Shown here: one piece after another, positions 14,999-48,173 of the stretch
Layout of the letters: every line of letters starts with the position of its first letter
Position numbering within the stretch: position 1 is the first letter of the stretch
The notes under the pieces: generated by a model
Databases searched by the model: none
What the model was told of the DNA's origin: nothing
Seen by the model: only the letters and a program-made list of their open reading frames with translations
Origin: an uncultured Gammaproteobacteria bacterium
GTDB lineage: Bacteria; Pseudomonadota; Gammaproteobacteria; Steroidobacterales; GCA-2729495
Direction of reading: 5' to 3'
Length of the DNA: 54,764 nt
NCBI GenBank assembly: GCA_937958785.1
Contig: CALGMY010000141.1
Span: 1 to 54,764, forward strand
Made by a program: the position numbers and the translations under genes

Positions 14999-16066
14999 AT
15001 GAATCCCCTCACCGATGCCCCGGTGGCCCCGGCCGCCGCGCCCGGAACCCCGGTCGCACCCGGCCCGTCGGCCTTCTTCCCGACCGGCCAGAGTGGACGC
15101 ATGACCGCGGTCCGCCACCTCATCGAGCAGGTGGCGGCATTCCAGACCAGCGTCCTCATCACCGGCGAGTCGGGCACGGGCAAGGAGTGGGCCGCGCGCT
15201 ACGTGCACGAACTTTCACCCCGGGCCGACAAGGCCTTCGTGCCCGTGAACTGCGGGGCGATCCCCGCCGACCTGCTCGAGAGCGAACTCTTTGGCCACGA
15301 GAAGGGAGCCTTCACCGGCGCCATCTCCACCCGGGTGGGACGGTTCGAGGCCGCCGAGGGCGGCACGCTGTTCCTCGACGAGATCGGTGACATGAGCCTG
15401 CCAATGCAGGTGAAGCTGCTGCGGGTGCTGCAGGAGCGGACCTACGAGCGGGTCGGCAGCAACCGTCCCCGCAGCTGCGACGTGCGGATCATCGCGGCGA
15501 CCCACCGCAACCTGGAGGCGGCGATCCGGGAAGGCAACTTCCGGGAAGACCTCTATTACCGCCTCAACGTGTTCCCGATCGAGTTGCCCCCGCTCCGGGA
15601 GCGGCTCGAGGACCTCGGCGACCTCATCGCGAACATCCTGGAGCGTTGCCGGGCCACCGGCCTGTCACCGGTACAGGTGACGCCCGGCGCGGTGCGCATC
15701 CTCCGGCACTACGCCTGGCCCGGGAACATCCGGGAGCTCGCCAACCTGCTCGAGCGGCTCTGCGTGCTGTATCCGGACGGGGTGGTGGATATCCCCCAGC
15801 TGCCCACCCGGTACACGGCCAGCGCCCCCTTGCGGGAAGCGGACCGGCGGGAGGTGGCCGCCACCCGCGCCTCCGGGCCCCAGCCCCAGGACATCGAGCT
15901 GCCGGCGGAGGGCCTGCCGCTCAAGGACTACCTGGAGCAGATCGAGATGGCCCTGATCCGCCGCGCGCTCCACGACGCCAACGGCGTCATCGCCCACGCG
16001 GCCGAGAAGCTGCAGGTCCGCCGCACCACCCTCGCCGAGAAGATGAAGCGCTACGGGATCGGCTAG
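14999..16066 (+). CDS. Sigma-54-dependent enhancer-binding protein with AAA+ and Fis-type HTH domains only (no N-terminal receiver or sensor domain)
   Basis: 355 aa. A Pro/Ala-rich 30-aa N-terminus runs straight into Walker [15 protein letters not shown] loop, Walker [11 protein letters not shown]-terminal [24 protein letters not shown]. Confidence 0.9.
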
Positions 16067-16077
16067 GCCGCCATTCC

Positions 16078-17598
16078 TCAGGCGGCGCGTTCGGCCTTGT
16101 GGCAGGTGAACCGGTCGCGACCGGCCCGCTTCGACTCGTAGAGCGCGGCGTCGGCTGCGGCCAGGAGCGCCTTCGGGTCCTCGAAGCGGGTCCCGGAGTC
16201 GCAGGTCGCGATGCCGAGCGACAGCGTGATCCCCACCGACTTGCCATCCGCCGTCTGCGCCTTGCGGGACCGGGCCTCCTGGCAGACCCGCGTGCCCACG
16301 TGGTTCGCCTTCTCGGCATCCACGCCCGGCAGCAGCAGTACGAACTCGTCACCGCCGTAGCGGGCCACCACGTCGGTGTCGCGCAGTGACTCCCGCAGCA
16401 GGCGGGCCACCGTCTGCAGCACGGCGTCGCCGGCCTGGTGCCCGTTGGTGTCGTTGACCTCCTTGAACTTGTCGAGGTCGACGAACACGACCGAGAGTGG
16501 CCAGCCGTTCTTCGTCGCGGCCTCGAACTCCCGGGCGAGGGATTCCTCGAAGAACCGCCGGTTGTGCGCGTTCGTGAGGGGGTCCCGGATGTTCTCGGTC
16601 TTGAGCTCGCTGTTTTCCTCCTCGAGCTGCTTCTTCGTGCCCTTGAGGTCCTGGTTCTCGGCAATGGTGTACAGGTTGCGCACCATCAGCGTCTCGCGGG
16701 CCGCGTCGGTGATGTCCTGCAGCTGGTCCGCGTCGTAGAGCTCCATCTGGAAGAGCTCCTCGGCCACGGGCAACTGCTCCCGGACGAGATCGAACATCTC
16801 ACCCAGGCGGTGTGGCTGGATCCCGAGGAACTTGTGGGCCTGCTGGCCCACGCGACGCAGCGTCACGTCGTTGCGGGCGCCGAGCCAGACGTCGGACAGC
16901 TCGCCCGACAGTGCGACCGTCCGGACGAAGAGCTTGTCGTCGCCCTCGACGCCGGCCGCGCTCGGGTCATGGCTGTGCTGGACGGCCTGCACGAGGCTGG
17001 CGGGCAGCTTCCAGATGCCGAGCAGCGCGGAGCCAATCATCCGGTGGTCGGAACCGATGCAGTTCTGCTCGTGCTGGCAGATCCGCGGGTGCTCGATCTT
17101 GAACGGCGACATGCCGTCGTAGACCTCCGGCCAGAGCTTGAAGATCACCAGCATGCCGAGGTCCTGCAGCAGCGAAGCGAGGAAGATCTCCTCCGCGTCC
17201 CGGCGTCCCAGCTCGCTAGCCAGCAGCTTGGCCCAGGCTGCCGACAGCACCGTCCGGCGCCAGTAGGCCTGGAAGTCGAAGCCCTCGGTCGAGGTCTTCT
17301 TGAGGGCCTGTACCAGCGTGAAGCTGAGGGCGAGGGTCAGCGTGGCATTGAGGCCGAGCGTGATCAACGCCTGGCGCAGGTTCGCGCTTTGCCGGCGCCG
17401 GGCATACATTGCCGAGTTGGCGATGCGCATCACCTTGGCGGCGATCGCGGGATCGGCGCTCACCGCATCGGCCACCTTGCCGAGGTCGATGTCCGGATTC
17501 TGGGCGAGCTGCAGCACCTGCATCGCGACGGGCGGCGGCGTGGGGAAGTTCGTGCAGGTCTTCAGGCGCTGCATGATGTGCTCGGGGATCTGGCTCAT
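16078..17598 (-). CDS. HDOD-domain / GGDEF diguanylate cyclase
   Basis: ATG at 17598 (MSQIPEHIMQRL). N-terminal HDOD-like region (PPVAMQVLQLAQNPDIDLGKVADAVSADPAIAAKVMRIANSAMY), a coiled-coil linker, then GGDEF with an intact RYGGDEF and an I-site RDTD five residues upstream. Confidence 0.85.
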   Translation of the reverse strand: MSQIPEHIMQRLKTCTNFPTPPPVAMQVLQLAQNPDIDLGKVADAVSADPAIAAKVMRIANSAMYARRRQSANLRQALITLGLNATLTLALSFTLVQALKKTSTEGFDFQAYWRRTVLSAAWAKLLASELGRRDAEEIFLASLLQDLGMLVIFKLWPEVYDGMSPFKIEHPRICQHEQNCIGSDHRMIGSALLGIWKLPASLVQAVQHSHDPSAAGVEGDDKLFVRTVALSGELSDVWLGARNDVTLRRVGQQAHKFLGIQPHRLGEMFDLVREQLPVAEELFQMELYDADQLQDITDAARETLMVRNLYTIAENQDLKGTKKQLEEENSELKTENIRDPLTNAHNRRFFEESLAREFEAATKNGWPLSVVFVDLDKFKEVNDTNGHQAGDAVLQTVARLLRESLRDTDVVARYGGDEFVLLLPGVDAEKANHVGTRVCQEARSRKAQTADGKSVGITLSLGIATCDSGTRFEDPKALLAAADAALYESKRAGRDRFTCHKAERAA

Positions 17599-17665
17599 GG
17601 CTCGTCGCTCCGGAGGGCTTGTTCTTGATTGATGTGGCTGGGTTGCTGGTGCTGGAAGTTGCCGC

Positions 17666-18157
17666 TCAGTGCAGTTCCGCCGGGCCGTCCTGGCCCGGGG
17701 CGCGGCCGTAGAGGGTCTGGACGAGGTGGGCCTCGCCCTGGCTGAGGCCGCAGGTGTCGACCAGCTGGCGGGCCGTGGCGCCGTGGCGCGACAGGGCGAT
17801 GGCCTGGCGGAGGCCATTGCGCGTGTTGCCGCCCGTCACGGCGTCCTGGCGGGAGGCAAGCTGGTCCACCCGCTGCCGCAGCTGGATGGCCTCGCTGGCG
17901 GCATCGGCCAGCAGCAGTTCCGTCGCCTGCAGGCGCTGGTGCAGTTCGTCCCAGCGCTCTGCGATGTCCGTGGCCCGCGACGGGCGGGCCAGCCGGCGCG
18001 CGAGCCAGCCGAGCGCGAGCAGGCAGGGTATGGCGGCGATGGCCACGGCCACCGAGGCCGGGGTGGCGGCGGGCAGTGCCACCTCGTTCAGGAGGCCGGC
18101 CGTGCGGGCGAGGGCCTCGTGGAGGGAGGGCAGTGCAAGGTTGTCGAGCGCGGGCAT
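17666..18157 (-). CDS. DUF2802-type flagellar-cluster protein
   Basis: 163 aa. One TM segment, a coiled-coil and a C-terminal helix-turn-helix-like GLSQGEAHLVQTLY. It sits where DUF2802 genes sit at the end of Pseudomonas/Vibrio mot-che clusters. Confidence 0.6.
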   Translation of the reverse strand: MPALDNLALPSLHEALARTAGLLNEVALPAATPASVAVAIAAIPCLLALGWLARRLARPSRATDIAERWDELHQRLQATELLLADAASEAIQLRQRVDQLASRQDAVTGGNTRNGLRQAIALSRHGATARQLVDTCGLSQGEAHLVQTLYGRAPGQDGPAELH

Positions 18158-28404: not shown

Positions 28405-28766
28405 GGTGCCGGGGCGCGCTTGGCAGGCGGCACCACGTCGGTGAGGCGGATGCCGAACTTGTCGTTGATGATCACGATCTCCCCATGGGCGACCAGCGCA
28501 CCGTTGACCAGCACGTCCAGGGGTTCCCCGGCATTGCGGTCGAGCTCGACCACCGAGCCCTGGGAGAGCCGCAGCAGCTTGCCGACGCTCATCTGGGCGC
28601 GGCCGACCTCGAGGGAGAGCGTGACGGGGACATCGAGGATGACGTCGATGTTCGCGCGCAGCTCGCCGCCCACGGGGCTGCCGGCCACGCCGGCGTCATC
28701 GAGTGCAGGGGCCTTGAAGGCCTGCGCCGCGCCGGCGCCGGCTTCAGGAGTTTTCGCCTCGTCCAT
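28401..28766 (-). CDS. fliN: Flagellar switch protein FliN
   Basis: SpoA domain: VPVTLSLEVGRAQMSVGKLLRLSQGSVVELDRNAGEPLDVLVNG. Confidence 0.95.
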   Translation of the reverse strand: MDEAKTPEAGAGAAQAFKAPALDDAGVAGSPVGGELRANIDVILDVPVTLSLEVGRAQMSVGKLLRLSQGSVVELDRNAGEPLDVLVNGALVAHGEIVIINDKFGIRLTDVVPPAKRAPAP

Positions 28767-29745
28767 ACTTCTCTCCTACGGTGATTCGGTTGGCGGGCTT
28801 GGTGACCCGCACGGCATTCCGGCCCTGGTACACGCCGAAGGTGCCTTCCACGAGCGGCGTGTCGCCGGCGTAGAGCAGCACCGAGGGCAGCAGGTCGGTC
28901 GGGATGATGTCGCCAGGCTTGGCCTCGGTGAGGTCCCGCAGGCTGATCTCGGTGCGCGCGACGACGGCGCGCAGTGACACCCGGGCGTCCTGCACGTCGT
29001 TCTTGAGCCGGGTCGACCAGCGCTGGGTCTCCTCCGCGGCCTGGCCTGCCTGGCCCGCGTCGCGCAGCTGGCGGATCGGCTCCATGAGTGATTCGGGCAG
29101 CACGACCTCGAAGCGGAAGTCGCGGCCGGCGAGGGTGAGCTCGAAGCCGGTGATGGCCATGGGGTCCGAGCCGGCTGCCACCGCCGCGAAGATGGGGTTG
29201 ACCTCGGAGGCCCCGAGCTGGAAGTCGACCGCCAGGAAGGGCTTCCAGGCCTCGCGCATGTCCTGGAGGATGCTGGCGACGAACTTGCGGACGAGTCTCA
29301 CCTCCATCGGGGTGAACTCGGCAGTGGCCTCGAGGCGCGTACCCTTGCCGTCGCCGCCGAAGAAGATGTCGACCAGTGTGAATACGAAGTCGGAGTCGAG
29401 CGTGACCACGCCCTTGCAGCCATGGGACCGGATGTCGATCACGTTGAGGCTGCTCGGCACCGGCATCCGCCGGGAATGCAGCCCCCAGCGTTCCGCGCGC
29501 CACGGGCGCGGGGTGACTTCCACCGACTGGCGGAAGAACTTGCGCGCGGTGAGCTTCAGCAGGCTGGTCAGCCGCTCGGAGATGGACTCGAGGGCGGGGA
29601 CCTTGTCGGACGCGATGCGCTCCCAGTGGTCGGCGTGCAGGTCGAGCACGTGGCCAGTGGGGGCGGGGCCCTGCGGGTCCGCCGGATCGGCCGGCGCGCG
29701 CAGTGCCTGCGATTCCTCGTCCGACAGGATGTCCTGGGTGGTCAT
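28744..29745 (-). CDS. fliM: Flagellar switch protein FliM
   Basis: 333 aa. N-terminal LSDEESQAL CheY-P-binding-type motif, FliM middle domain and a C-terminal SpoA-like domain. Confidence 0.95.
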   Translation of the reverse strand: MTTQDILSDEESQALRAPADPADPQGPAPTGHVLDLHADHWERIASDKVPALESISERLTSLLKLTARKFFRQSVEVTPRPWRAERWGLHSRRMPVPSSLNVIDIRSHGCKGVVTLDSDFVFTLVDIFFGGDGKGTRLEATAEFTPMEVRLVRKFVASILQDMREAWKPFLAVDFQLGASEVNPIFAAVAAGSDPMAITGFELTLAGRDFRFEVVLPESLMEPIRQLRDAGQAGQAAEETQRWSTRLKNDVQDARVSLRAVVARTEISLRDLTEAKPGDIIPTDLLPSVLLYAGDTPLVEGTFGVYQGRNAVRVTKPANRITVGEKYGRGENS

Positions 29746-29760
29746 CGGGGAATCCCGTGG

Positions 29761-30336
29761 TTACTGGACGACGAAGCTGGTGAAGTAGAGGTCCTCGACC
29801 ACGCCGGGATGCTCCGGATCGGCCTTCGGCATCGGGTTCTTCTTCAGGATCTCCTGCACCTCGGCGAGGGCAGCCTGGCGGATCTTCTCCTTCTCCTCCC
29901 GGTTGGTGAGCGACGGGATGGGCTGCCCACCGAGGAGCATGAGCAGGTTGTTGCGGATGACGGGCATGTGGTTCTTCAGCGCGTCGATCACGTGCTGGTC
30001 CCGGGACATGAGCTCGACCGTGACCTGCAGGAAGCGGATGCTGCCCTGGTCCTCGAGGCTGACCACGAGCGGCGGGTCCATCGGCAGGTACAGCGGCGGA
30101 CCCGTCGGGGCTTCCGGTACCGGCTTGCCGTCCTCGCCGACCTTCACCTCGGGCGCGGGGCAGTTGGGGGTGACCGAGTTCAGCACCTTGCAGCCGATGA
30201 TCGGGGCCGCGAGCTGGGTGGTGAGCAGCATGATGAACAGGCCGATGACGGTGCCCACCGCCTTGAGCAGGCTGCCGCTCCTGGCGGCGGCGGCGGGGGC
30301 GGCTTCGGCGGGGGCGGCGGTCTCTTCAGTGGCCAT
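29761..30336 (-). CDS. fliL: Flagellar basal-body-associated protein FliL
   Basis: 191 aa. Single TM after an Ala/Pro-rich N-terminus. FLQVTVELMSRD and NREEKEKIRQAAL are FliL-like. First gene of the fliL-to-DUF2802 array. Confidence 0.9.
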   Translation of the reverse strand: MATEETAAPAEAAPAAAARSGSLLKAVGTVIGLFIMLLTTQLAAPIIGCKVLNSVTPNCPAPEVKVGEDGKPVPEAPTGPPLYLPMDPPLVVSLEDQGSIRFLQVTVELMSRDQHVIDALKNHMPVIRNNLLMLLGGQPIPSLTNREEKEKIRQAALAEVQEILKKNPMPKADPEHPGVVEDLYFTSFVVQ

Positions 30337-30370
30337 GAGTGTCTGTCCGTGGGAGTCCCGGACAGCTTCA

Positions 30371-30387
30371 AAGCAAGAGACGTGCCA
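30371..30387 (-). promoter_or_regulatory. Sigma-54 (-24/-12) promoter upstream of fliL
   Basis: Minus strand reads TGGCACGTCTCTTGCTT, matching TGGCACG-N4-TTGCW. The -12 element lies about 37 nt upstream of the fliL ATG. Confidence 0.8.
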
Positions 30388-30510
30388 GCGGCGGCCGCTG
30401 GATAAAAAGCTTATGAATCAGCTATCTGTGGCCGCCCACCGGGGCCAGGCGGCCGCCGGCCGCCAAACGGCTGGCGGGCGGCCCACGGCCGCCAACCGAT
30501 TGGCCGACCT

Positions 30511-32712
30511 TCAGGGCGTGACGGGCAGGGCCGGACTCGGCGGCGGCGGCACGAGCACCGGGTCGAAGTCGGGGAGGGCGCCGATCGCGCCGTTGTCGAG
30601 CCCCGTCGCCGGGTCCCCAGCGCCGGGGATGACGCCGGCCATCCAGTCGGCGAGGTACTGGGCGAAGTCCCAGCGGGCCCCTTCCGCGTCCATCGAGTGC
30701 GCCGGCAGGCCCCGGTTGGGATCCCGCGGGCCGCCGTTCGGGTACAGGCTCGCGTACGGCGGCTGGTGGTAGGTCACGTCCGTGCCGGCCGTGAGCAGCG
30801 TGGCGTAGAGCCGGTCGGACCACTGCACGGGCGTCGCGGAGTCGCCTTCCGCATGGACGATGAGATAGGGCGTCACCAGTTTCCGGGCTTCCCGCTCGAC
30901 CACGGCCAGCGTGTCGGGGCCGTAATAGCTCAGGACACTGCGGGGCGTGACCAGCACGGACGCGCTCAGCAGCCCGCCGTTGCCCAGGGTGACGCCGGCG
31001 AGGAACTCGTAGGGGATGTCGCCCCGGCCCGCGTCGATCTCCACCTGCGCCTGGGCCAGCGCGCAGGGGTAGAGCAGGGGACCGCAGTTCAGTCCGGGGA
31101 AGACTTCTTCCTCGAGGGACGGACCGGCGAAGGGCGCGGCCGTGGCGCCTTCCCGGTTGTCGGCGATGGTGCCGACCGACACGACACCCGCCACCCGCGG
31201 GTCGTTGGCCGCGGTGCTGCCTGCCACATCGGGGCCGCAACGCCTGAAGTTGCCCGGGTACACCGGCACGAAGCTCGTGCCCTTGCTGTGGCCGAGCAGC
31301 ACCACGCCCTCGTAGCCCAGGGTGTCCACGAGGTACTCCACGCCACTCTTGAGGTCGCACATCGCGTCGGGGTACAGGGTGTTGCCGCCGCCCTCGTTCG
31401 CGCCGTAGTCGGTGCTGTCGCGCCGGTTCAGGACCAGGGTGGTGATCCCGTGGGGTTCCAGCCACCAGCCAAGCCAGCCGACGAGACCGCGGTCGTAGCC
31501 GCCGAAGGTGCCGTGGGTGGCGAGTACCGCGACCTTGCGGGTGGCGCCGGCGGGCACGAACAGCGAACCATCCAGCTCCGTGCGGGGCGCAGCACCCCAG
31601 GGCGTGAAGCTGCCGTTCCACACGGGCAGCGCCACCTTCTTGACCCGCATGCCGGTGTTGGCCGTGGTCTCGCAGGCCATCGCGGTGTCGAGGCCGATGC
31701 CACCGTCGCAGGTGTCCCGGCCCTCGTCGCCGTTCACCATGTCGTTGCCGAGGCCGGCCCGGACGAAGTCGTTGCCGAACCCGCCGATGATCGTGTCGTC
31801 GCCGGGGCCGCCGTCGATGAAGTCGTGCCCGTTGCCCGCGCTGATCATGTCGTTGCCGGGACCGCCGCAGATGGTGTCGTTGCCGCTGGCGCCCGTGATG
31901 GTGTCGTTGCCGCCGAGGCCGACGATCACGTCGGGCAGCTTGGTCCCGCGCAGGTTGTCCGCCTCCGGAGTGCCGACGATTGTGGCGAGCTTGCCGTTGC
32001 AGGTCTCGGTGATGACCTGGGCCTCCCCCGGGTTCGCGGCGAGCAGGGCCAGGGCGCCGGCTGCGGCGGGTGCCGCGGCCCGCAGGCGGCGGCGCAGCAG
32101 TCCGACGCCGGCCAGTGCCCAGCCGAGCAGCCAGCCCGCGGCCGGCGCCGGCACCACGGCAACCCCGTCGCCACTCACGTCCACCGCCCAGAAGGACGTC
32201 CGGGACTCGGCGCTGACGTCGCAGAACTGGCCGGCGCTGCAGCCGAAGACGCTGGTGAAGTCCGCCCCGGACTTGCTGAAGCCGGCGGCGAGGTCGGGCC
32301 CCAGCGGTTCGTTGTTGAACTGGGTGATGGCGACGAGGTAGTTCCCCGCCGCGAGTTCCGTCACCACGTTCACGTCGAAGCAGTCGTTGGTGAGCGGGTC
32401 GTTGGGCACGCTATTGCATTCGGGAGTGGCGTCGTCCTGGGTGAGCAGCAGGAGGCCTGCCGCGTCGAACAGCGCGATGCCCGGGTCGAAGCCGCCGGCC
32501 GGGACGGCGGCCCCGGCGCCGTTGGTGCCACCCGCATAGGAGAAGCTCCGCAGCGTCACCGTGCCGGCCGCGGTCACGACGAAGCCGAACGTGGCGACGT
32601 CGTCATCCCGGGTGAGGTTGCCGGTGAAGCTCAGGGTGGCGGCACCGGCGGTGGCCGTGAAGCCGAGGAGGCCCGTGAGGGCGAGCGCGGCCGGAAACGT
32701 GGTGAAGCGCAT
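30511..32712 (-). CDS. Chimeric secreted/membrane protein: signal peptide, DVUA0089-like domain, internal PEP-CTERM-like anchor, RTX Ca-binding repeats, alpha/beta serine hydrolase
   Basis: ATG at 32712 (MRFTTFPAALALTGLLGFTATAGA) after GGGGGA. GGFDPGIALFD and NYLVAITQFNN. VPAPAAGWLLGWALAGVGLLRRRLR lies mid-protein. GLGGNDTITGASGNDTICGGPGNDMISAGNGHDFIDGGPGDDTIIGGFGND. GHSKG nucleophile elbow. Confidence 0.7.
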   Translation of the reverse strand: MRFTTFPAALALTGLLGFTATAGAATLSFTGNLTRDDDVATFGFVVTAAGTVTLRSFSYAGGTNGAGAAVPAGGFDPGIALFDAAGLLLLTQDDATPECNSVPNDPLTNDCFDVNVVTELAAGNYLVAITQFNNEPLGPDLAAGFSKSGADFTSVFGCSAGQFCDVSAESRTSFWAVDVSGDGVAVVPAPAAGWLLGWALAGVGLLRRRLRAAAPAAAGALALLAANPGEAQVITETCNGKLATIVGTPEADNLRGTKLPDVIVGLGGNDTITGASGNDTICGGPGNDMISAGNGHDFIDGGPGDDTIIGGFGNDFVRAGLGNDMVNGDEGRDTCDGGIGLDTAMACETTANTGMRVKKVALPVWNGSFTPWGAAPRTELDGSLFVPAGATRKVAVLATHGTFGGYDRGLVGWLGWWLEPHGITTLVLNRRDSTDYGANEGGGNTLYPDAMCDLKSGVEYLVDTLGYEGVVLLGHSKGTSFVPVYPGNFRRCGPDVAGSTAANDPRVAGVVSVGTIADNREGATAAPFAGPSLEEEVFPGLNCGPLLYPCALAQAQVEIDAGRGDIPYEFLAGVTLGNGGLLSASVLVTPRSVLSYYGPDTLAVVEREARKLVTPYLIVHAEGDSATPVQWSDRLYATLLTAGTDVTYHQPPYASLYPNGGPRDPNRGLPAHSMDAEGARWDFAQYLADWMAGVIPGAGDPATGLDNGAIGALPDFDPVLVPPPPSPALPVTP

Positions 32713-32798
32713 GGTGGGTCCCCCAGGCAGTCTCCGGGCGGGACTGCCGCCGGACTGCCGATCGTTGTTCTGGTTTGATCGCCCGAGCTTAACCAAGC

Positions 32799-32836
32799 CG
32801 CCGCGGAGCCGCCATGGCATCCCCGGCTCCGCGGCG
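32799..32836 (-). terminator. Terminator-like hairpin downstream of fliK
   Basis: cgccgcggagccg / cggctccgcggcg form a 13-bp perfect stem with a 12-nt loop, starting 15 nt after the fliK stop. The trailing sequence CTTGGTTAAGCT is only moderately T-rich. Confidence 0.5.
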
Positions 32837-32850
32837 CCTTATGTCGAGAC

Positions 32851-34161
32851 TCAGGCCCAGACATCCAGCAGGCGGTCCGGCGCGGGCCGTGCCGGCGATC
32901 CGTCGCCGGCGATCCGGCTGTCGCGCCGCGTGGCCGCGGCCCAGGGCCCCGGCACCTCGCTCGTCCGGCGCTCCTGGCCGGAGGCAGACTGGCCGGAGGC
33001 GGACTGGCCCGGATTGCCCGTGCCGGTGTCCACCTGGGTGCGGGTCAGCTGGATGCCCTGCTCGGCGAACATCTCCTTGAGCCGCGGCAGGGTGCCCTCG
33101 ATGGCTTCGCGGGCCTGGGCGCTGCTGGTCCCGAACCACACCTGGGCCGTGCCGTCTTCCAGGGTGATCTGCACGTCGAGTTCACCGAGCTGCTCCGGGT
33201 GCAGCCGGAGCCGGGCGGAGTGGCTCCCCGGCCCCGCGAGGGTGAGCAGCCGGTCGGCGAGGCCGCCGGCGAACGCGGCCCCGTCACCGAGCGGCTGCAG
33301 CGGCGGCAGGCCGGTGCCGGCCAGGCGGCCGGCCAGCGTGCCGCCATCGGTGGCGCTGGCGGGCAGGGTGGTCGTGGCCAGGGTGGTCGCCGGCGACGTG
33401 TCCGGTGCCGCGGCGAATGCGGCGATGTGGCCGGCCAGCCATTCACCGCCGGCGAGCGGCACCGCCGGCAGCGGGCTCCGCGTGAGGTCCGCGCCCGCGA
33501 GTCGCAGGGTGAGCCGGTCGTTCGCCTGGGGCAGGGGGAGCGGCACTGTGGCCGGCGTGGGAGTCGGTGCGCCGGTCGACGCTGGCAGGCGTGCCGCCGC
33601 CGGGACCTCGTCCGGATGGTCCGTTCCCGCGGACCTTACGAGCGGGAGCGGGTTCGCCACCGGGCCAGTCGCGCCGCCTGCCACGGCCGGCTCATCCCCG
33701 GGGATCGCCGGGACCGGGACCGGCGGCGCCGCCACCGGCCGCGTCAGGGCGAGGGCGGCGAGGGAAATGCGTTCGGGGGGTGGGGGTGGCGCCGGCGTGC
33801 CGGTGGCCGGTGCCGGCAACTCTCCACCCGACAGCGGCAAGCCGTTGCCGCCGGCCGGCAGCGCATTGCCGGACGGCAGTGCCGCGGGCAGTGCCGCAGG
33901 AAGGGCGACGGGTGACGGGGCCAGCGCGGGCAGGGGCGGCAGCGAGCCTGTGGCGTCGGCCTCCGCCGCGTCGCTGGCGAGGTCGGGAAAGAGGGCTTCG
34001 GTGCCGTTCGCGGCGGCCGGCGGTGCGAGCGTCTGCGTGCCGCCGAGCACGCCGGCCAGGAGCGCGGCAAAGGGGTTGCCGGCACCGGGCCGGAGGGGGG
34101 CCGGTGCGGCGGCGGTCACCAGTTCCGGGGCCGGGACGACGTTCAGGGACACTTCGCTCAC
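32851..34161 (-). CDS. fliK: Flagellar hook-length control protein FliK
   Basis: 436 aa. Pro/Ala-rich N-terminal and central region. C-terminal Flg_hook domain LRLHPEQLGELDVQITLEDGTAQVWFGTSSAQAREAIEGTLPRLKEMF. GTG start; the start is uncertain (see findings). Confidence 0.88.
   Translation of the reverse strand: MSEVSLNVVPAPELVTAAAPAPLRPGAGNPFAALLAGVLGGTQTLAPPAAANGTEALFPDLASDAAEADATGSLPPLPALAPSPVALPAALPAALPSGNALPAGGNGLPLSGGELPAPATGTPAPPPPPERISLAALALTRPVAAPPVPVPAIPGDEPAVAGGATGPVANPLPLVRSAGTDHPDEVPAAARLPASTGAPTPTPATVPLPLPQANDRLTLRLAGADLTRSPLPAVPLAGGEWLAGHIAAFAAAPDTSPATTLATTTLPASATDGGTLAGRLAGTGLPPLQPLGDGAAFAGGLADRLLTLAGPGSHSARLRLHPEQLGELDVQITLEDGTAQVWFGTSSAQAREAIEGTLPRLKEMFAEQGIQLTRTQVDTGTGNPGQSASGQSASGQERRTSEVPGPWAAATRRDSRIAGDGSPARPAPDRLLDVWA
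32974..33010. repeat. 15-bp tandem repeat (about 2.4 copies) inside the fliK 3' end
   Basis: ctggccggaggcaga ctggccggaggcgga ctggccc encodes GQSASGQSASGQ. Confidence 0.85.
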
Positions 34162-34172
34162 GGGGAGGTATC

Positions 34173-34189
34173 AAGCAACCTCCGTGCCA
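34173..34189 (-). promoter_or_regulatory. Sigma-54 promoter in the 35-nt fliJ-fliK gap
   Basis: Minus strand reads TGGCACGGAGGTTGCTT, matching TGGCACG-N4-TTGCW. The -12 C is only about 13 nt from the fliK GTG. Confidence 0.7.
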
Positions 34190-42013: not shown

Positions 42014-42619
42014 TCAGGTTTTTGGCGCCCGGTGGATCCCGGTCTTGCTGAACACGTCGGTGCCCCGGGCGATGGCGACCTGGCGCCGGTGCCGGCGGAA
42101 GATCAGCTTCTCGAGGCCCACGGAGACGAGGGGCGAGAGGTGCTCGAAGCGGGTGATCCGCCAGCGCACGCCGCTGCGCTCCACCGAGCCCGATACCCGG
42201 CCCGCCAGGCGGAACGGGATCGGCAGCAGGGGGTTCGCATACAGCACCAGGACGCCGCTGTCGCCCGTCCGCGCCTGGTCCGCCGAGGGCCCGGTCCACT
42301 CGAGGCAGTCCGCGCGCAGCACCGTGTTGTGGCGCTTCGGCAGGCCGTGCTGCTGGGTCACCAGCCGGGTCACGAGGGACAGCAGCACGTCCACCTTGGC
42401 TTCCAGGTGATGGAGCTCCTGGCCCTTGGGGTTCGGGTCGGTCGAGACCTCCTTCGGGGCTTCCTCGAAGAGGGCAATGGCCTGCAGGGCCCGGGCCGTC
42501 TCCTGGTTGTAGTGCTCGAGTTCGGCCGGGTCGGCGAGCGGGGACGGCTCCCAGGCCAGCGGCAGGAAATCGTGCAGCGCGAGGCCCTCGAATTCGGTCG
42601 GGTTCGGTGCCCTGTTCAT
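42014..42619 (-). CDS. PilZ-like (atypical PilZ, candidate c-di-GMP receptor) protein in the fliD-S-T operon
   Basis: 201 aa, starting 6 nt after the fliT-like stop. HHLEAKVDVLLSLVTRLV helix, a beta-rich core, and C-terminal LEKLIFRRHRRQVA, which I recall from atypical PilZ-domain proteins. Not verified by search. Confidence 0.45.
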   Translation of the reverse strand: MNRAPNPTEFEGLALHDFLPLAWEPSPLADPAELEHYNQETARALQAIALFEEAPKEVSTDPNPKGQELHHLEAKVDVLLSLVTRLVTQQHGLPKRHNTVLRADCLEWTGPSADQARTGDSGVLVLYANPLLPIPFRLAGRVSGSVERSGVRWRITRFEHLSPLVSVGLEKLIFRRHRRQVAIARGTDVFSKTGIHRAPKT

Positions 42620-43427: not shown

Positions 43428-44780
43428 CTAGCTGAGCTGCTGCGAGAGGAAGCTGCTGGTGTTCTTCAGCTGCCCGAGCAGCTGGTCCATGGCGTTGAAC
43501 TGGTCGAGGAGCCGGCTGCGCACCCGTTCGATGCGCTCCTCCAGGGTCTCCCGCTGGGCGGTGATGGTCTTGAGGGTGGTCTTCAGGGCGTCCTCGCGGG
43601 TGGTGATGGTGCTGCCGCTGGAGAGTGTGGCCTCCGCGATCTCCTCGAGGCGTGTCGCGAGGCCAGTGGTGCCGGCGAACAGGTTGCTCACCGCGTCGAA
43701 GTCGTCGTCGATGGCCGCGGCCAGCTTCGTGGCGTCCACCGAGAGCTTGCCGGTGATCTGGGTAGTGACGCCGATGGCGGCCAGGGAGTTGAAGGCACCA
43801 GAGCCGAGGCTGGCGCTCATCTCCCGGCGGAGCTGGTCGCGGATGCCGCGGACCGTCGCGTCACCCAGCAGCGGCGCGGCGTCCCGGGTGTCGGCGTTGT
43901 AGCGGGTCAGCTCGGTGACCGTGTCGATCAGCTTGTTGTAGGCCGTGACGAAGCCCTGTACCGAGTTCTTCGCGCTCGCCGGGTCGTACTCGACCGACAG
44001 GTCCAGCATGGTGCCGGGCTTGGCCGCCACCAGGTTGACCGTCACGCCCTCGATGGCGTCGCTGATGGCGTTGCTCGCGCTGGTCACCGGGAAGCCGTCG
44101 ATGACGATGTTGGCATCCGCGGCGGCCTGCAGCTGGAGCATCGGGTTGGCTGGCGCGCCGGCCGCGTAGGCGAAGTTGGCGAGGCCGCCATCGCCGCCGC
44201 TCACCGTCACCGTGATGGCGTTGGCGGCCCCGGTCTCGGTGGCGGACAGCACGAGGTGGGCGCCGTCGCTGGCGTTTACGATCGTGGCCCGCACGCCCGG
44301 GTTGTCGGGCGACTGGTTGATGGCGTCGCGGATGTCGTTCAGCGTGTTGGCCGGCGCCGCGATGGCAATGTTGGCCGTCTGGCCATTCACGGTGATGGCG
44401 AGCATCCCCGTGCCGACGGCGGTGGCCGCGTCCGGGAAGCCGATGGAGCGCAGGCGCTGGGCCGAGGCGAGGTTCATCACCTCGATGGAGTAGGTGCCGG
44501 GCAACGAGTCGCTGCCGGCCGTGGCCGTGAAGACCTTGTCGTCCTGGACCTTGACCGTGCGTCCCTGGAAGGTGTCCGCGTCGCTGAGTCCCGCCACCGC
44601 GTCCTTGAAGGCGGCGAGGGCGCTCTTGAACTTGCCGAGGGCCGACAGCTCCTCGTTGGCCTTGCCCTCCCGGCTCGTGAGCCGGTTGGCGGTGGGCGCG
44701 CGCTCGGCGGCCACCAGCTGCTCGACGATCGAGTTGATGTCGAGGCCGGAGCCGAGTCCGGTGGACGTCAGTGTGGCCAT
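43428..44780 (-). CDS. fliD: Flagellar filament cap protein FliD
   Basis: 450 aa. N-terminus TSTGLGSGLDINSIVEQLVAAERAP. C-terminus RLLDQFNAMDQLLGQLKNTSSFLSQQL. Confidence 0.95.
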   Translation of the reverse strand: MATLTSTGLGSGLDINSIVEQLVAAERAPTANRLTSREGKANEELSALGKFKSALAAFKDAVAGLSDADTFQGRTVKVQDDKVFTATAGSDSLPGTYSIEVMNLASAQRLRSIGFPDAATAVGTGMLAITVNGQTANIAIAAPANTLNDIRDAINQSPDNPGVRATIVNASDGAHLVLSATETGAANAITVTVSGGDGGLANFAYAAGAPANPMLQLQAAADANIVIDGFPVTSASNAISDAIEGVTVNLVAAKPGTMLDLSVEYDPASAKNSVQGFVTAYNKLIDTVTELTRYNADTRDAAPLLGDATVRGIRDQLRREMSASLGSGAFNSLAAIGVTTQITGKLSVDATKLAAAIDDDFDAVSNLFAGTTGLATRLEEIAEATLSSGSTITTREDALKTTLKTITAQRETLEERIERVRSRLLDQFNAMDQLLGQLKNTSSFLSQQLS

Positions 44781-44831: not shown

Positions 44832-44848
44832 AAGCAAGATGCGTGCCA
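44832..44848 (-). promoter_or_regulatory. Sigma-54 promoter upstream of fliD
   Basis: Minus strand reads TGGCACGCATCTTGCTT, matching TGGCACG-N4-TTGCW. The -12 element lies about 54 nt before the fliD ATG. Confidence 0.8.
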
Positions 44849-45340: not shown

Positions 45341-46783
45341 TTACCGGAACAGACCCAGCACCGTCTGGGGAGCCGCGTTGGCCTGGGCCAACACCGCCAC
45401 GCCCGCCTGCTGCAGGATCTGGGCCCGGGTCAGGGCCGCCGTCTCGGCCGCGAAATCGGCGTCCTGGATCCGGCTGCGGGAGGCCGTGAGGTTCTCCGCG
45501 ACGCTGGACAGGTTCGAGATCGTGGACTCGAAGCGGTTCTGGATGGCGCCGAGCTGGCTCCGGAGCGAGGACACGGCGGTGAGGGCCGCGTCAGCGCGCT
45601 GGATGGCCGTGTTGGCGTTCGCCACCGACGTCACGCTGACCGTGGAGAGGGTCGTCGTGTCGACGGCGATCGAGGTGCCGGCGAAGCCGATCGCCGCGTT
45701 CGCACCGCCCAGGGTGATGTTCTGGGCAGCAGCCAGCGTGATCGTGCCCCGCAGCGTGCCTTCCTGGGCAGCCGCGATGCCGGTACCGGTCAGCGTCGCG
45801 CCAGCGCCCTGGGTGATCGTCTCGGCGACCACCACATTGCGGCCGTCAGCCGCGGTCAGGGTCAGGCTGGTGCCCGACACGGCCGCGGAAACGCCCGTCT
45901 GGGTGGAGAACAGGTTGATCTGCGCAGCGACGTCGGCGGCCGTCAGCGAGGCGCCGGCGGCAACGTTGTCGGCACCCGCGTAGATCGCCACGCCGTTCAC
46001 CGTCAGGTTATAGGTCGAAGTCGCGGCCGCGTTGTTGATGGTCGAGAACGTGCCGGTCGTGACGTTGGTGGCGGTGGCGGTCAGGCCCGAGACGCCGGCC
46101 GCGTTGATCGCATTGACCTTCGCGTAGGCGCTGTCGGCCGTCTGCTGCACCTGGGTACCGGCGGCGCTGGCGCCGACGGACACCGCGGCCGCCTGGCCCA
46201 CGGCGATCGTGAGGCTGCCATCCGTCAGGACCGCGTTGGTCACCGCCGTGCCCGTGGCCGTGGCGATCTGGCCAAGCTGGTCAGCCCGGACGCCCGTGGT
46301 CAGGTTCACGTTGATCGTCTCGCCGACGTTCGCGCCGACCTGGAACTGGGCGGAGCCGAAGCTGCCGTCGAGGACCTTCTGGCCGTTGAACGAGGTCTGG
46401 GAGGCGATGCGGTTGATTTCCGCGATGCGCTGCTGCACTTCCTGGTCGAGGGCGGCCCGGTCCGACGCAGAGTTGGTCGCGTTGGCGGCCTGCACGGCCA
46501 GCTCACGGATGCGCTGCAGGTTGTTGCCGAGCTCATCCAGGGCCGACTCGGCCGTCTGGGACAGGGAGATGCCGTCGTTGGCGTTCCGGACAGCCTGGTT
46601 CAGGCCGCGGATCTGGGTGGTGAAGCGGTCGGCGATCGCGAGACCCGCAGCGTCGTCCTTGGCGCTGTTGATCCGGAGACCGGAGGAAAGCCGCTGCAGC
46701 GCGGTGGACAGGGTGCTGTCGGAGCGCGACAGGTTGCGCTGGGCGTTCAGCGACAGCACGTTGGTATTTACGACACTAGGCAT
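45341..46783 (-). CDS. fliC: Flagellin
   Basis: 480 aa. Conserved N-terminus ([36 protein letters not shown]) and C-terminus ([39 protein letters not shown]). Ala/Thr/Gly-rich central region. GGAGGG 6 nt before the ATG. Confidence 0.97.
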
Positions 46784-46933: not shown

Positions 46934-46990
46934 GTAGGAGCGGCTTCAGCCGCGATTCAAACGGGGATCGCGCCTGAAGGCGCTCCTACA
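46934..46990. repeat. Inverted pair of REP-like elements
   Basis: gtaggagcggcttcagccgcgatt (46934-57) faces atcgcgcctgaaggcgctcctaca (46967-90). The TAG of the second copy is the flgL stop codon (46986-88). Confidence 0.85.
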
Positions 46991-48173
46991 GCACGTCGAA
47001 GAGGGAGAGGGACTGGGTCCTCGCGTAGGCCTTCTGCGCCGCCTCCAGGCTCGTGAGCTGCTGCTCCAGCCGGGAGATGGCCGTGGCGTAGTCCAGGTCC
47101 TCGATCGTCGAAAGCGAGCTCTTGAGCTCCAGGGCCACGTCCGCGTTGCTGTCGAGCTGCTGGTCGATGGTGGCGAGGCGCGCGCCCACCTGGCTGCGGA
47201 AGTTGCCGATGTGGGTCAGGGCCTGGTCCAGGTCCTGCAGGTTGGCATTGACCAGGTTCTGGAAGGTGGACCGGCCCGCGGCATCGTTCGTGTTGGTGCC
47301 CAGCAGGTCGATGAAGTCCTGGACCGTGCGGAACACGTCCTGGAAGCCGGCCGACCCGACGGTGAACTGGTCACCGGCGGCCGGTGTGCCCTGGAACTGG
47401 ATGCTGGCGCCGAGGAAGCTCACCGTATCGCCCGGCGCGTAGGTGCCGTTGTCCACCACCACCCCGGCGCTGCTCACTTCCCAGGTCGTGGCGGAGGTGA
47501 ACTGGAGCGTGTAGGTGCCGTTGATAAAGCCCGTCCCGCTCGCCACTTCGGCCGACGTCCAGGACGCCGTGCCCGCGTTCCCGGCGGCCGGGGTGATGGT
47601 GTACGCCCCGTTGCCGCTCGCGATCTGCATGAACACGGCGGAGCCCGCATCGTTCTCCTGCACGGTCCGGGCGTCGGCCACCCGCTGGGAGCGCACGCCG
47701 GTGTCGCCGGCGTACTGCACGCCGCCCGACTGGACGAAGGGCCGGGTTTGAACGAGGTTGCCGGCGAAGAGGTAGCGGCCCTCGCCGTCCTGGGCGTTGG
47801 CAATGTTGAGCAGGCCGGTCAGCAGCTCCTTCGCCTCGGCGGCGATCGCGGCCCGGCTCTCGTTGGTCTGGGTGCCGTTCGCGGCCTGGATCGAGAGCTC
47901 CCGGATCCGGTTCAGGGTGTCGGTCGCGCCCGCCAGGGAGTCTTCCTCGAGCGACAGCCGGCGCCTGGCCGTCTCGGCGTTGGTGCCGAAGTTCTCCAGC
48001 CGGTCCAGGCCCTGCTGCAGCAGCAGGCCCTGGGCCGCGCCGGCCGGGTCGTCGGCCGCGGTGCTGATGCGCTTGCCGCTGCTCACCTGGCCCTGGATCT
48101 CGGCCAGTTCCGCCTGCTGGCGCCGGATGGCCGACAGCCACTGCAGCTGGTAGACGTTCGAGGCTATGCGCAT
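46986..48173 (-). CDS. flgL: Hook-filament junction protein FlgL (HAP3)
   Basis: 395 aa. Flagellin-like N-terminus (MRIASNVYQ..VSSGKRISTAADDPAGAA) and C-terminal helices. Confidence 0.93.
   Translation of the reverse strand: MRIASNVYQLQWLSAIRRQQAELAEIQGQVSSGKRISTAADDPAGAAQGLLLQQGLDRLENFGTNAETARRRLSLEEDSLAGATDTLNRIRELSIQAANGTQTNESRAAIAAEAKELLTGLLNIANAQDGEGRYLFAGNLVQTRPFVQSGGVQYAGDTGVRSQRVADARTVQENDAGSAVFMQIASGNGAYTITPAAGNAGTASWTSAEVASGTGFINGTYTLQFTSATTWEVSSAGVVVDNGTYAPGDTVSFLGASIQFQGTPAAGDQFTVGSAGFQDVFRTVQDFIDLLGTNTNDAAGRSTFQNLVNANLQDLDQALTHIGNFRSQVGARLATIDQQLDSNADVALELKSSLSTIEDLDYATAISRLEQQLTSLEAAQKAYARTQSLSLFDVL

Follow-up and report, generated by a model that had tools for sequence, protein, structure and literature searches.

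Why should a C-terminal sorting signal lie in the middle of a protein? The question is raised by an open reading frame (ORF) in DNA of an uncultured gammaproteobacterium of the order Steroidobacterales (contig CALGMY010000141.1, positions 1 to 54,764; this whole stretch of 54,764 nt is the window in what follows). The ORF occupies 30511..32712 on the minus strand, between the flagellar genes fliK and fliL, starts with the ATG at 32712 and encodes 733 aa plus a stop codon. Its product contains, in this order, a signal peptide, a DVUA0089-family domain, a PEP-CTERM-like sorting tail, a second signal peptide that lacks a start codon, RTX repeats and an alpha/beta hydrolase. The sorting tail thus ends at aa 211 of 733 and not at the extreme C-terminus. 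Our work indicates that the ORF is almost certainly a real fusion of a conserved gene pair. As an overall explanation we consider it fairly probable that two adjacent, coupled genes were fused in frame and that the product is exported through a membrane hairpin and cleaved twice.

The two halves of the protein and their junction

A preliminary description of the locus, made from the letters alone, had named the DVUA0089 domain, the PEP-CTERM-like tail, the RTX repeats and the hydrolase, and profile and structure searches recovered all four. These features are far beyond what chance would produce, because the E-values of the module hidden Markov models (HMMs) are very small and the whole arrangement is kept in orthologues. 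The entire gene, including the junction between its halves, is coded in a single frame with a GC content at third codon positions (GC3) of at least 0.87. We read a Shine-Dalgarno-like GGGGGA directly in the sequence at 32719..32724 (minus strand), 6 nt 5' of the ATG; its counterpart in the related locus L001 is GGAGGA. The public gene call of an identical protein (P0001) is 769 aa long and starts at the ATG at 32820. This longer start is probably a miscall and the product 733 aa, since the ATG at 32820 lies inside a hairpin that follows fliK and the orthologues begin at MR.

The first 211 residues align end to end with standalone DVUA0089 proteins, which are 190-250 aa long. Because these standalone members stop 0-12 residues past their Arg cluster, whereas the window protein runs 522 aa beyond its tail, aa 1-211 represent a complete protein of this family, as the preliminary description had supposed for the N-terminal third. 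The protein begins with a Sec-type signal peptide (aa 1-24, MRFTTFPAALALTGLLGFTATAGA followed by A; 32641..32712, minus strand), whose hydrophobic peak ends in AGA before that A. It aligns with the signal peptides of the standalone proteins, and no other membrane segment precedes the tail. The domain itself (aa 25-185; 32158..32640, minus strand) is a beta-sandwich of the PPC/collagen-binding type, identified by HMM, AlphaFold2 (AF2) and Foldseek. The NCBIfam model NF038127 (FDP_fam) matches aa 22-181 over profile positions 1-149 of 150 (E = 2.5e-39; 135.1 bits against a cutoff of 29). AF2 models the module with a predicted local distance difference test score (pLDDT) of 87, as a soluble beta-sandwich between signal peptide and tail. 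Its best Foldseek matches in the PDB are the Ca-binding jelly roll of Tk-SP, the ColG/ColH collagen-binding domains of clostridial collagenases and a pre-peptidase C-terminal (PPC) domain, with carbohydrate-binding modules ranking lower. Judged by this model, the module looks like a binding module and not like an enzyme.

The sorting tail (aa 186-211, VVPAPAAGWLLGWALAGVGLLRRRLR; 32080..32157, minus strand) was recognized by alignment, with marginal HMM scores. It consists of VVPAP, the hydrophobic helix AAGWLLGWALAGVGLL and the basic cluster RRRLR, and it matches the C-terminal tails of standalone DVUA0089 members column for column. The tails of full-length members of the PepA, EDSAP-1 and THxN PEP-CTERM families also align to it, at E-values of 1e-4 to 1e-3. 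The window protein and the standalone proteins share the signal peptide, the GGFDP beta-sandwich, the PxP motif, the helix and the Arg cluster; they differ in that the commoner motif of the standalone proteins is VPEP, while that of the window is VPAP.

Directly behind the tail lies the remnant of a second signal peptide (aa 212-231, AAAPAAAGALALLAANPGEA; 32020..32079, minus strand). Read along the junction, RRRLR is followed by AAAPAAAGALALLAA, then by NPGEA and then by Q, so that the basic cluster of the sorting tail doubles as the n-region of the internal signal peptide. The predicted signal peptidase I site is A231|Q232 (GEA|Q). This segment aligns with genuine N-terminal signal peptides of split orthologues (described below), which agrees with the earlier view of it as a signal peptide minus its start codon. 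The codon check likewise reproduced the statement that no ATG, GTG or TTG lies in frame across the junction: from aa 188 to 240 there are none, only CTG codons. We therefore rejected an internal translation start for the esterase.

The second half begins with RTX Ca-binding nonapeptides (aa 265-345; 31678..31920, minus strand), recognized by PF00353 with 78.5 bits (cutoff 23; E = 3e-22). The preliminary description was right about the GGxGxD repeats and too low in its count of about six; there are nine in tandem. The remainder (aa 352-733; 30514..31659, minus strand) is an alpha/beta-hydrolase domain with a lid and a conserved Pro-rich C-terminal tail. It reached the cutoff of no curated hydrolase family tried (PF00561, 19.9 bits against 25.8; PF12146, 15.2 against 27; PF08386, 15.4 against 21; EstD, 10.5 against 600), and a sequence search of the PDB gave a single match (E = 0.002) and no close solved structure. 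Structure prediction nevertheless confirmed the fold as that of a lidded alpha/beta hydrolase: the AF2 model has a predicted TM-score (pTM) of 0.82, and Foldseek returned cinnamoyl/feruloyl esterases, the monoglyceride lipase Rv0183, TTL lipase and PET46 (best E = 1.5e-11; target TM-scores up to 0.74). The GHSKG elbow noted earlier holds the catalytic Ser476 (codon 31285..31287, minus strand), which is joined by Asp624 (30841-30843) and His672 (30697-30699). G474-H-S476-K-G, D624 and H672 are invariant in 16 homologues of 40-82% identity. Six cysteines are invariant among homologues of the hydrolase half, a pattern that fits an exported enzyme with putative disulfide bonds.

Could the RTX-hydrolase half be a substrate of a type I secretion system (T1SS)? 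It shares RTX nonapeptides and a hydrolase with T1SS lipases and esterases, such as the PueA/PueB polyurethane esterases (NF050046) and serralysin-type enzymes. In the window protein, however, the repeats follow a Sec signal peptide and come ahead of the catalytic domain, and the six cysteines are invariant. The NF050046-type match is weak and partial, covering the repeats only (26 against 670 bits), and models of RTX toxins and serralysins stay far below cutoff. In their gene tables, the relatives' loci have no called T1SS genes for the ATP-binding cassette (ABC) protein, membrane fusion protein (MFP) or outer membrane factor (OMF), and the neighbors in the window are fliK and fliL. On this architecture and these neighbors we rejected the T1SS candidate.

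Two side observations concern the hydrolase family. Its members end in a Pro-rich tail, ALPDFDPxLVPPxPNPxLP (window 30514-30580, aa ~712-733; low pLDDT), kept even in the 40%-identical protein of L023 (...GLPDFDPPLRP), which could be a sorting or partner-binding motif. In another homologue, P0019 (480 aa), the region in place of the RTX block reads as putatively Ig-like.

Fused and split relatives

The preliminary description had left room for an assembly error, and an indel at the junction would indeed be conceivable on the general prior for high-GC metagenomic assemblies. That prior is all that speaks for an artefact. An independent metagenome contig (L024; 5,110 bp) aligns without gaps to window positions 28437-33546 and has 7 mismatches (99.86% identity), and the fused protein encoded on it is identical to that of the window. 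Full-length fused orthologues were found in many independent samples, at 82% (P0002, three samples), 80% (P0003), 69% (P0005) and 57% identity (P0013, four assemblies; P0014). Together with the continuous coding-frame signal in GC3, these results exclude an assembly or sequencing artefact, to which we give practically no credence.

The same homology search also returned proteins of ~525 aa that correspond to the C-terminal ~70% of the window protein only. These split orthologues have their own Met and signal peptide, which matches the startless signal peptide of the window column for column. Every locus examined down to 47% identity has a DVUA0089 coding region immediately 5' of the RTX-hydrolase, in the same orientation; in L023, which holds the most distant homologue (40% identity), such a neighbor is absent, and the pairing does not extend there. 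The other alternative raised at the outset, a gene pair fused by mutation, is hence correct in an evolutionary sense, as relatives carry the halves as separate, adjacent genes. The mature parts of the two proteins in the split relatives (L003/L004, L014, L002, L011 and L017) are 47-78% identical to those of the window and have the same order and strand. What differs is the junction, where the split forms have a stop codon, a 0-98-nt spacer or an ATGA overlap, and a start codon, and where the window is ~55 nt shorter. In L014, gene A ends in ...GLRRRAA* and a 98-nt spacer follows. L003/L004 have 25 nt with a GGGGG Shine-Dalgarno sequence, L011 has 5 nt, and L002 has an ATGA stop/start overlap. 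In L017 both genes are in the same frame, which is broken only by TGA TAA and 24 nt. The window, L001, L006, L016, L018 and L025 are in-frame fusions, which lack, relative to L003, the ~55 nt that comprise stop codon, spacer and start codon. L002 (split) and L016 (fused) are syntenic and differ essentially in the junction alone. When the shared part is placed on a neighbor-joining tree, the fused members form three clades with split clades between them, and the earliest branches are split; parsimony then favors at least three independent fusions.

Has the fusion remained functional? One could imagine a dead or decaying fusion, effectively a pseudogene, in which the esterase is stranded in the cytoplasm and can neither fold its RTX repeats nor form disulfides. 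Accidental read-through fusions of this sort do occur, as in L005, which, like L012, we set aside as a frameshift-ridden assembly. The spurious fusion P0006 of L005 (3279-5538) has frameshifts in the DVUA0089 domain and the PEP-CTERM helix, destroying the latter, and its frame continues across the former spacer into the next gene, whose MPMRGTVMRQGNL... start is still in place. Judged by its name (contig_23951), the contig would come from a long-read assembly, and P0006 exemplifies the type of artefact that had been feared for the window. Within the fused clade, the ratio of nonsynonymous to synonymous substitutions (dN/dS) between the window and L001 is 0.145 for the module, 0.21 for the RTX repeats and 0.17 for the hydrolase, which points to strong purifying selection on both halves after the fusion (dN/dS 0.15-0.21). 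The catalytic triad and the six cysteines are invariant, and fusions have arisen in three or more clades and again in another phylum. A dead fusion is thus already largely refuted, and we regard it as very improbable.

The junction diverges faster (dN/dS 0.45, close to the 0.40 of the genuine N-terminal signal peptide) but retains its physicochemical pattern, a mode of evolution typical of signal sequences. In every fused protein, the PxP motif and a hydrophobic helix are followed by 4-8 basic residues and another hydrophobic stretch, and a small-x-Ala site lies a few residues ahead of an invariant Cys of the mature enzyme. By an anchored xxA|Q test, the -3/-1 signal peptidase site is present in 8/8 fused and 9/10 split members of the RTX-hydrolase family.

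The same junction design occurs in a second fused family, in the Acidobacteriota. A search of 1.84 billion representative proteins with a profile of the module returned ~3,900 members of the family, most of them of ~200-230 aa, along with long proteins in which the match, including the PEP-CTERM tail, sits at the N-terminus. Among all retrieved proteins, 67 have more than 150 aa after the module, and 54 of these 67 pass a strict hairpin pattern. The acidobacterial proteins (P0264, P0241, P0286, P0310, P0312, P0333, P0353, P0358 and P0382, among others; loci L027 and L028), labeled "DVUA0089 family protein" at NCBI, consist of the DVUA0089 domain, a canonical VPEP, a helix, a basic cluster, a new hydrophobic stretch, an xxA|Q site and a ~1,200-aa FG-GAP/VCBS-like cargo that is unrelated to the RTX-esterase. 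Their lengths are bimodal (~1,400-1,500 aa versus ~1,190-1,280 aa), and the short forms begin with their own Met and signal peptide. This family, too, is therefore found fused and split. Besides the phylum and the cargo, it differs from the window in its canonical PEP and, in the one split locus examined (L027), in gene order, as there the module gene follows the cargo gene at a distance of 37 nt. The signal-peptidase-type site is present in 34/34 fused and 24/25 split proteins. PF07589 passes its gathering cutoff at the internal position in P0264 and P0241, and the exact PEP motif is found in 53/53 hairpin-bearing fusions of the acidobacterial family, versus 111 of 178 standalone proteins (members of less than 300 aa). 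Since PEP plays no part in forming a hairpin and is conserved all the same, we argue that a sorting enzyme may still read the internal signal.

Proposed export and processing of the fused product

How could one chain stand in for two separately exported proteins? By sequence, gene A is a putative PEP-CTERM protein of the DVUA0089 family, with a signal peptide, a PPC/collagen-binding-like beta-sandwich and a VPxP-helix-Arg tail, and gene B a putative Sec-exported serine esterase with nine RTX Ca-binding repeats. We hypothesize that a small deletion took the stop codon of A, the spacer and the start codon of B, and left the tail of A and the signal peptide of B sharing one Arg cluster. The N-terminal signal peptide would start the Sec export of the module, and the PEP-CTERM helix would stop the transfer with the Arg cluster remaining in the cytoplasm. 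The second hydrophobic segment would then reinsert with its N-terminus in and its C-terminus out and drive the export of the RTX-esterase. This would leave two helices as a hairpin in the membrane, with neither domain in the cytoplasm. Such a hairpin would be oriented correctly because the cytoplasmic Arg cluster of the N-out/C-in anchor is also the n-region of the next signal peptide, in agreement with the positive-inside rule. Neighboring genes for exported proteins might in general fuse easily and without loss of function, as a C-terminal anchor and an N-terminal signal peptide would form an oriented hairpin automatically. RTX repeats need the Ca-rich surroundings outside the cytoplasm in order to fold, and this need, like the six invariant cysteines, fits an exported enzyme. 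Export of both halves through the hairpin appears quite likely to us.

Signal peptidase I would cut after GEA231|Q232 and an exosortase-type enzyme at VPAP. Both cuts together would yield the same two mature products as the split genes, in a fixed 1:1 stoichiometry. We propose that fused and split forms interchange freely because cleavage would regenerate the two products of the split relatives. On balance we lean, by a small degree, toward cleavage into two products.

Several points weigh against this account. The topology and the cleavages we infer from sequence features alone. The second hydrophobic segment of the window protein is Ala-rich and only moderately hydrophobic (Kyte-Doolittle peak of 1.83). 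The sorting motif is VPAP and not PEP; the isolated tail barely reaches the TIGR02595 cutoff (16.0 bits; cutoff 16) and stays below that of PF07589 (13.7 bits, under 20.7). A scan of 20 window genes showed no exosortase, nor do the gene tables of the loci list one within ~10 kb of any cassette; genome-wide searches for one were not made. The tree from which at least three fusions are read is a simple neighbor-joining tree without support values. Finally, 87% of PEP-CTERM domains have fewer than 10 trailing residues, and long-tailed ones were suggested to be possibly nonfunctional (Haft et al. 2006, PMC1569441). For the class with internal signals, the sequence conservation described above argues against this suggestion.

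Might the protein simply stay in one piece? The preliminary description had pictured, as one possibility, a membrane-tethered, Ca-dependent esterase or lipase. In full, this would be a stable bifunctional inner membrane protein in which neither internal signal is cut and which holds the module and the Ca-dependent esterase in the periplasm. The hairpin features are present, and two proteins without a hairpin indicate that the module can work when covalently attached: P0268 (629 aa), in which DVUA0089 is joined directly to a PGAP1/lipase-2-like alpha/beta hydrolase, and P0190 (643 aa), in which it is joined directly to an LVIVD beta-propeller without a PEP-CTERM/signal peptide hairpin. By their predicted architectures, both are independent evidence that the module may work with a partner protein. 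A pure anchor, however, needs neither a -3/-1 site nor PxP/PEP, and both are kept in fused forms at the same or a higher rate than in unfused ones. The free interconversion of split and fused forms in syntenic loci suggests that the two are functionally equivalent. A tethered esterase is possible but not the best-supported reading, as the retained signal peptidase site argues for release of the enzyme; we consider an uncut product unlikely.

Processing could also stop halfway. Signal peptidase would then free the esterase, and the module would remain anchored by the leftover hairpin for want of an exosortase cut, either because the genome has no exosortase or because the internal variant VPAP tail is not recognized. 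The marginal HMM scores of the VPAP variant are in line with this alternative, as are the lack of an exosortase among the scanned window genes and loci and the doubts of Haft et al. (2006) about nonterminal signals. However, split relatives in the clade of the window bear the same P[AVL]P variant at their true C-terminus, so VPAP is the normal signal of this clade, and the exact PEP is internal in all 53 acidobacterial fusions. We view half-processing as rather improbable and retain double cleavage as the preferred reading.

A single ORF whose internal signal peptide follows a membrane segment, and whose product signal peptidase turns into two proteins, has known counterparts; for the window, this cleavage is predicted. 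The product of fbcH of Bradyrhizobium japonicum reportedly gives rise to cytochromes b and c1 by cleavage at a signal peptide inside the chain. Viral polyproteins have such signal peptides too, for example, hepatitis C virus (HCV) core-E1 and bunyavirus Gn/Gc (PMC5402940, PMC5113920). The window protein differs from both in that its upstream part would itself be fully exported, so that its release would need a second enzyme, an exosortase. Each component (DVUA0089, PEP-CTERM, RTX and alpha/beta hydrolase) is known, and the family of the window gene is in public data under generic labels. In the literature on internal PEP-CTERM signals, on DVUA0089 function and on bacterial PEP-CTERM polyproteins, we found nothing beyond the remark of Haft et al. 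(2006) and a paper that places the founding member, DVUA0089 of Desulfovibrio vulgaris, in a sigma-54/DVUA0057 regulon for exopolysaccharide (EPS) and biofilm (PMC4641369). We could not find an earlier description of an internal PEP-CTERM signal that abuts an internal signal peptide, recurs over cargos and phyla and exists in fused and split forms.

PEP-CTERM signals are defined and annotated as C-terminal, and the exosortase reaction has scarcely been characterized biochemically. The more than 50 natural proteins with a conserved internal signal next to a signal peptide offer a ready test of whether exosortase needs a free C-terminus nearby, and of internal signal peptide cleavage in bacteria. 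They also give a first functional clue for the DVUA0089 family (~3,900 representative clusters), namely, that the genes of a PPC/collagen-binding-like module and of one particular secreted protein are coupled; this partner is an RTX-esterase in Gammaproteobacteria and a giant FG-GAP protein in Acidobacteriota. As a speculative extension that we think doubtful, DVUA0089/PEP-CTERM modules might be dedicated escort or anchor partners of particular secreted cargo proteins. The PEP-CTERM/signal peptide hairpin would then be a natural secretory polyprotein cassette of bacteria, present in two or more phyla, for excision by two membrane peptidases, exosortase and signal peptidase I. If so, an internal sorting signal can be a substrate of exosortases; at its boldest, this view has the acyl intermediate of exosortase resolved in a way that would reattach the module to the cargo, or to a surface polymer that holds it, and so splice out the hairpin. 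The labels "DVUA0089 family protein," "Ca2+-binding RTX toxin-like protein" and "pimeloyl-ACP methyl ester carboxylesterase" mask the two-protein nature of these genes, and annotators should be warned.

Genomic setting and side observations

The flanking genes are as the preliminary description had them. Upstream lies fliK (32851..34161, minus strand; PF02120), with an exact sigma-54 site just upstream of it at 34174-34189, and downstream lies fliL (29761..30336, minus strand). The view that the gene was inserted into a flagellar cluster holds for the window, L001 and L025, where the cassette shares the flagellar strand and is flanked by fliK and fliL, and for L003 (831-4379) and L004 (2162-5710), but not for other relatives, in which it occupies at least five unrelated contexts. 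Part of the lineage thus carries the same gene at this junction, which goes some of the way toward what the preliminary description had named as a refutation. In L003/L004, the fliK-fliL gap contains a three-gene cassette on the opposite strand, composed of a MauG-like di-haem cytochrome c peroxidase gene, the DVUA0089 gene and the RTX-hydrolase gene; this arrangement suggests either repeated landings in the gap or an inversion of the cassette. Given the unrelated contexts and the one opposite orientation, we rejected a flagellar function and a strict fliK-fliL linkage. The position looks like a lineage trait of the gap between two sigma-54 operons, incidental and without evidence of a flagellar role.

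Is the gene an independent transcription unit? The hairpin after fliK and the sigma-54 promoter before fliL, both described earlier, were found. The former is GC-rich (32795..32840, minus strand), follows the fliK stop codon and has 17-nt arms with 94% complementarity (folding free energy [dG] of -41 kcal/mol; z = -2.95) and no U-tract. GC-rich nested hairpins also follow the stop codon of the gene itself (30443..30505, minus strand; dG -59.8; z = -2.5), with no adjacent U-tract. The exact sigma-54 consensus TGGCACGTCTCTTGCT (30372..30387, minus strand) lies ~35 nt upstream of fliL and outside the gene. The 54.7-kb window has just two other exact TGGCAC-N5-TTGCW sites, that of fliK and one at 44833-44848, and all three are on the minus strand. 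A simple scan found neither a sigma-70 promoter nor a canonical intrinsic terminator for the gene. The founding DVUA0089 of D. vulgaris belongs to a sigma-54 regulon, and we considered an own sigma-54 promoter here also; it was rejected, as no site (GG/GC-spaced, at most 2 mismatches) occurs within 400 nt upstream of any of 11 cassettes. The upstream regions of the window and L001 share conserved blocks, none assignable to a known promoter type. The proposed transcriptional insulation is overstated, with hairpins lacking a U-tract and neither type of promoter found for the gene, and for the same reasons read-through from the fliK sigma-54 promoter is possible.

Other members of the DVUA0089 family show further rearrangements. 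P0174 and P0188 have tandem duplicated DVUA0089 domains. P0362 (1,234 aa) joins the signal peptide and first ~50 residues of the module directly to the cargo cleavage site, having lost the rest of the module and the hairpin through an internal deletion. In L028 (14499-18005), a paralogous standalone cargo gene comes after the fused acidobacterial gene, and genes for an extracytoplasmic function (ECF) sigma factor and a Ser/Thr kinase with Tricorn/PD40 domains come before the fused gene. In L016 (6481-8322), an unannotated 613-aa gene follows the fused gene.

Within the window, the sigma-54 site at 44833-44848 lies upstream of a 450-aa ORF at 43428-44780. Tandem flagellin genes are found at 45341-46783 and 46986-48173 (minus strand; 480 and 395 aa), the second of which matches models of the flagellin N- and C-termini far more weakly. 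Beside or within the flagellar cluster are genes for a cytochrome P460 (11992-12783), a sigma-54 activator (14999-16066) without a detectable N-terminal receiver domain, an HDOD-GGDEF protein (16078-17817) and an atypical PilZ protein (tPilZ; 42014-42619). These four genes are possible control points, through cyclic di-GMP (c-di-GMP) and sigma-54, of a switch between motility and biofilm.

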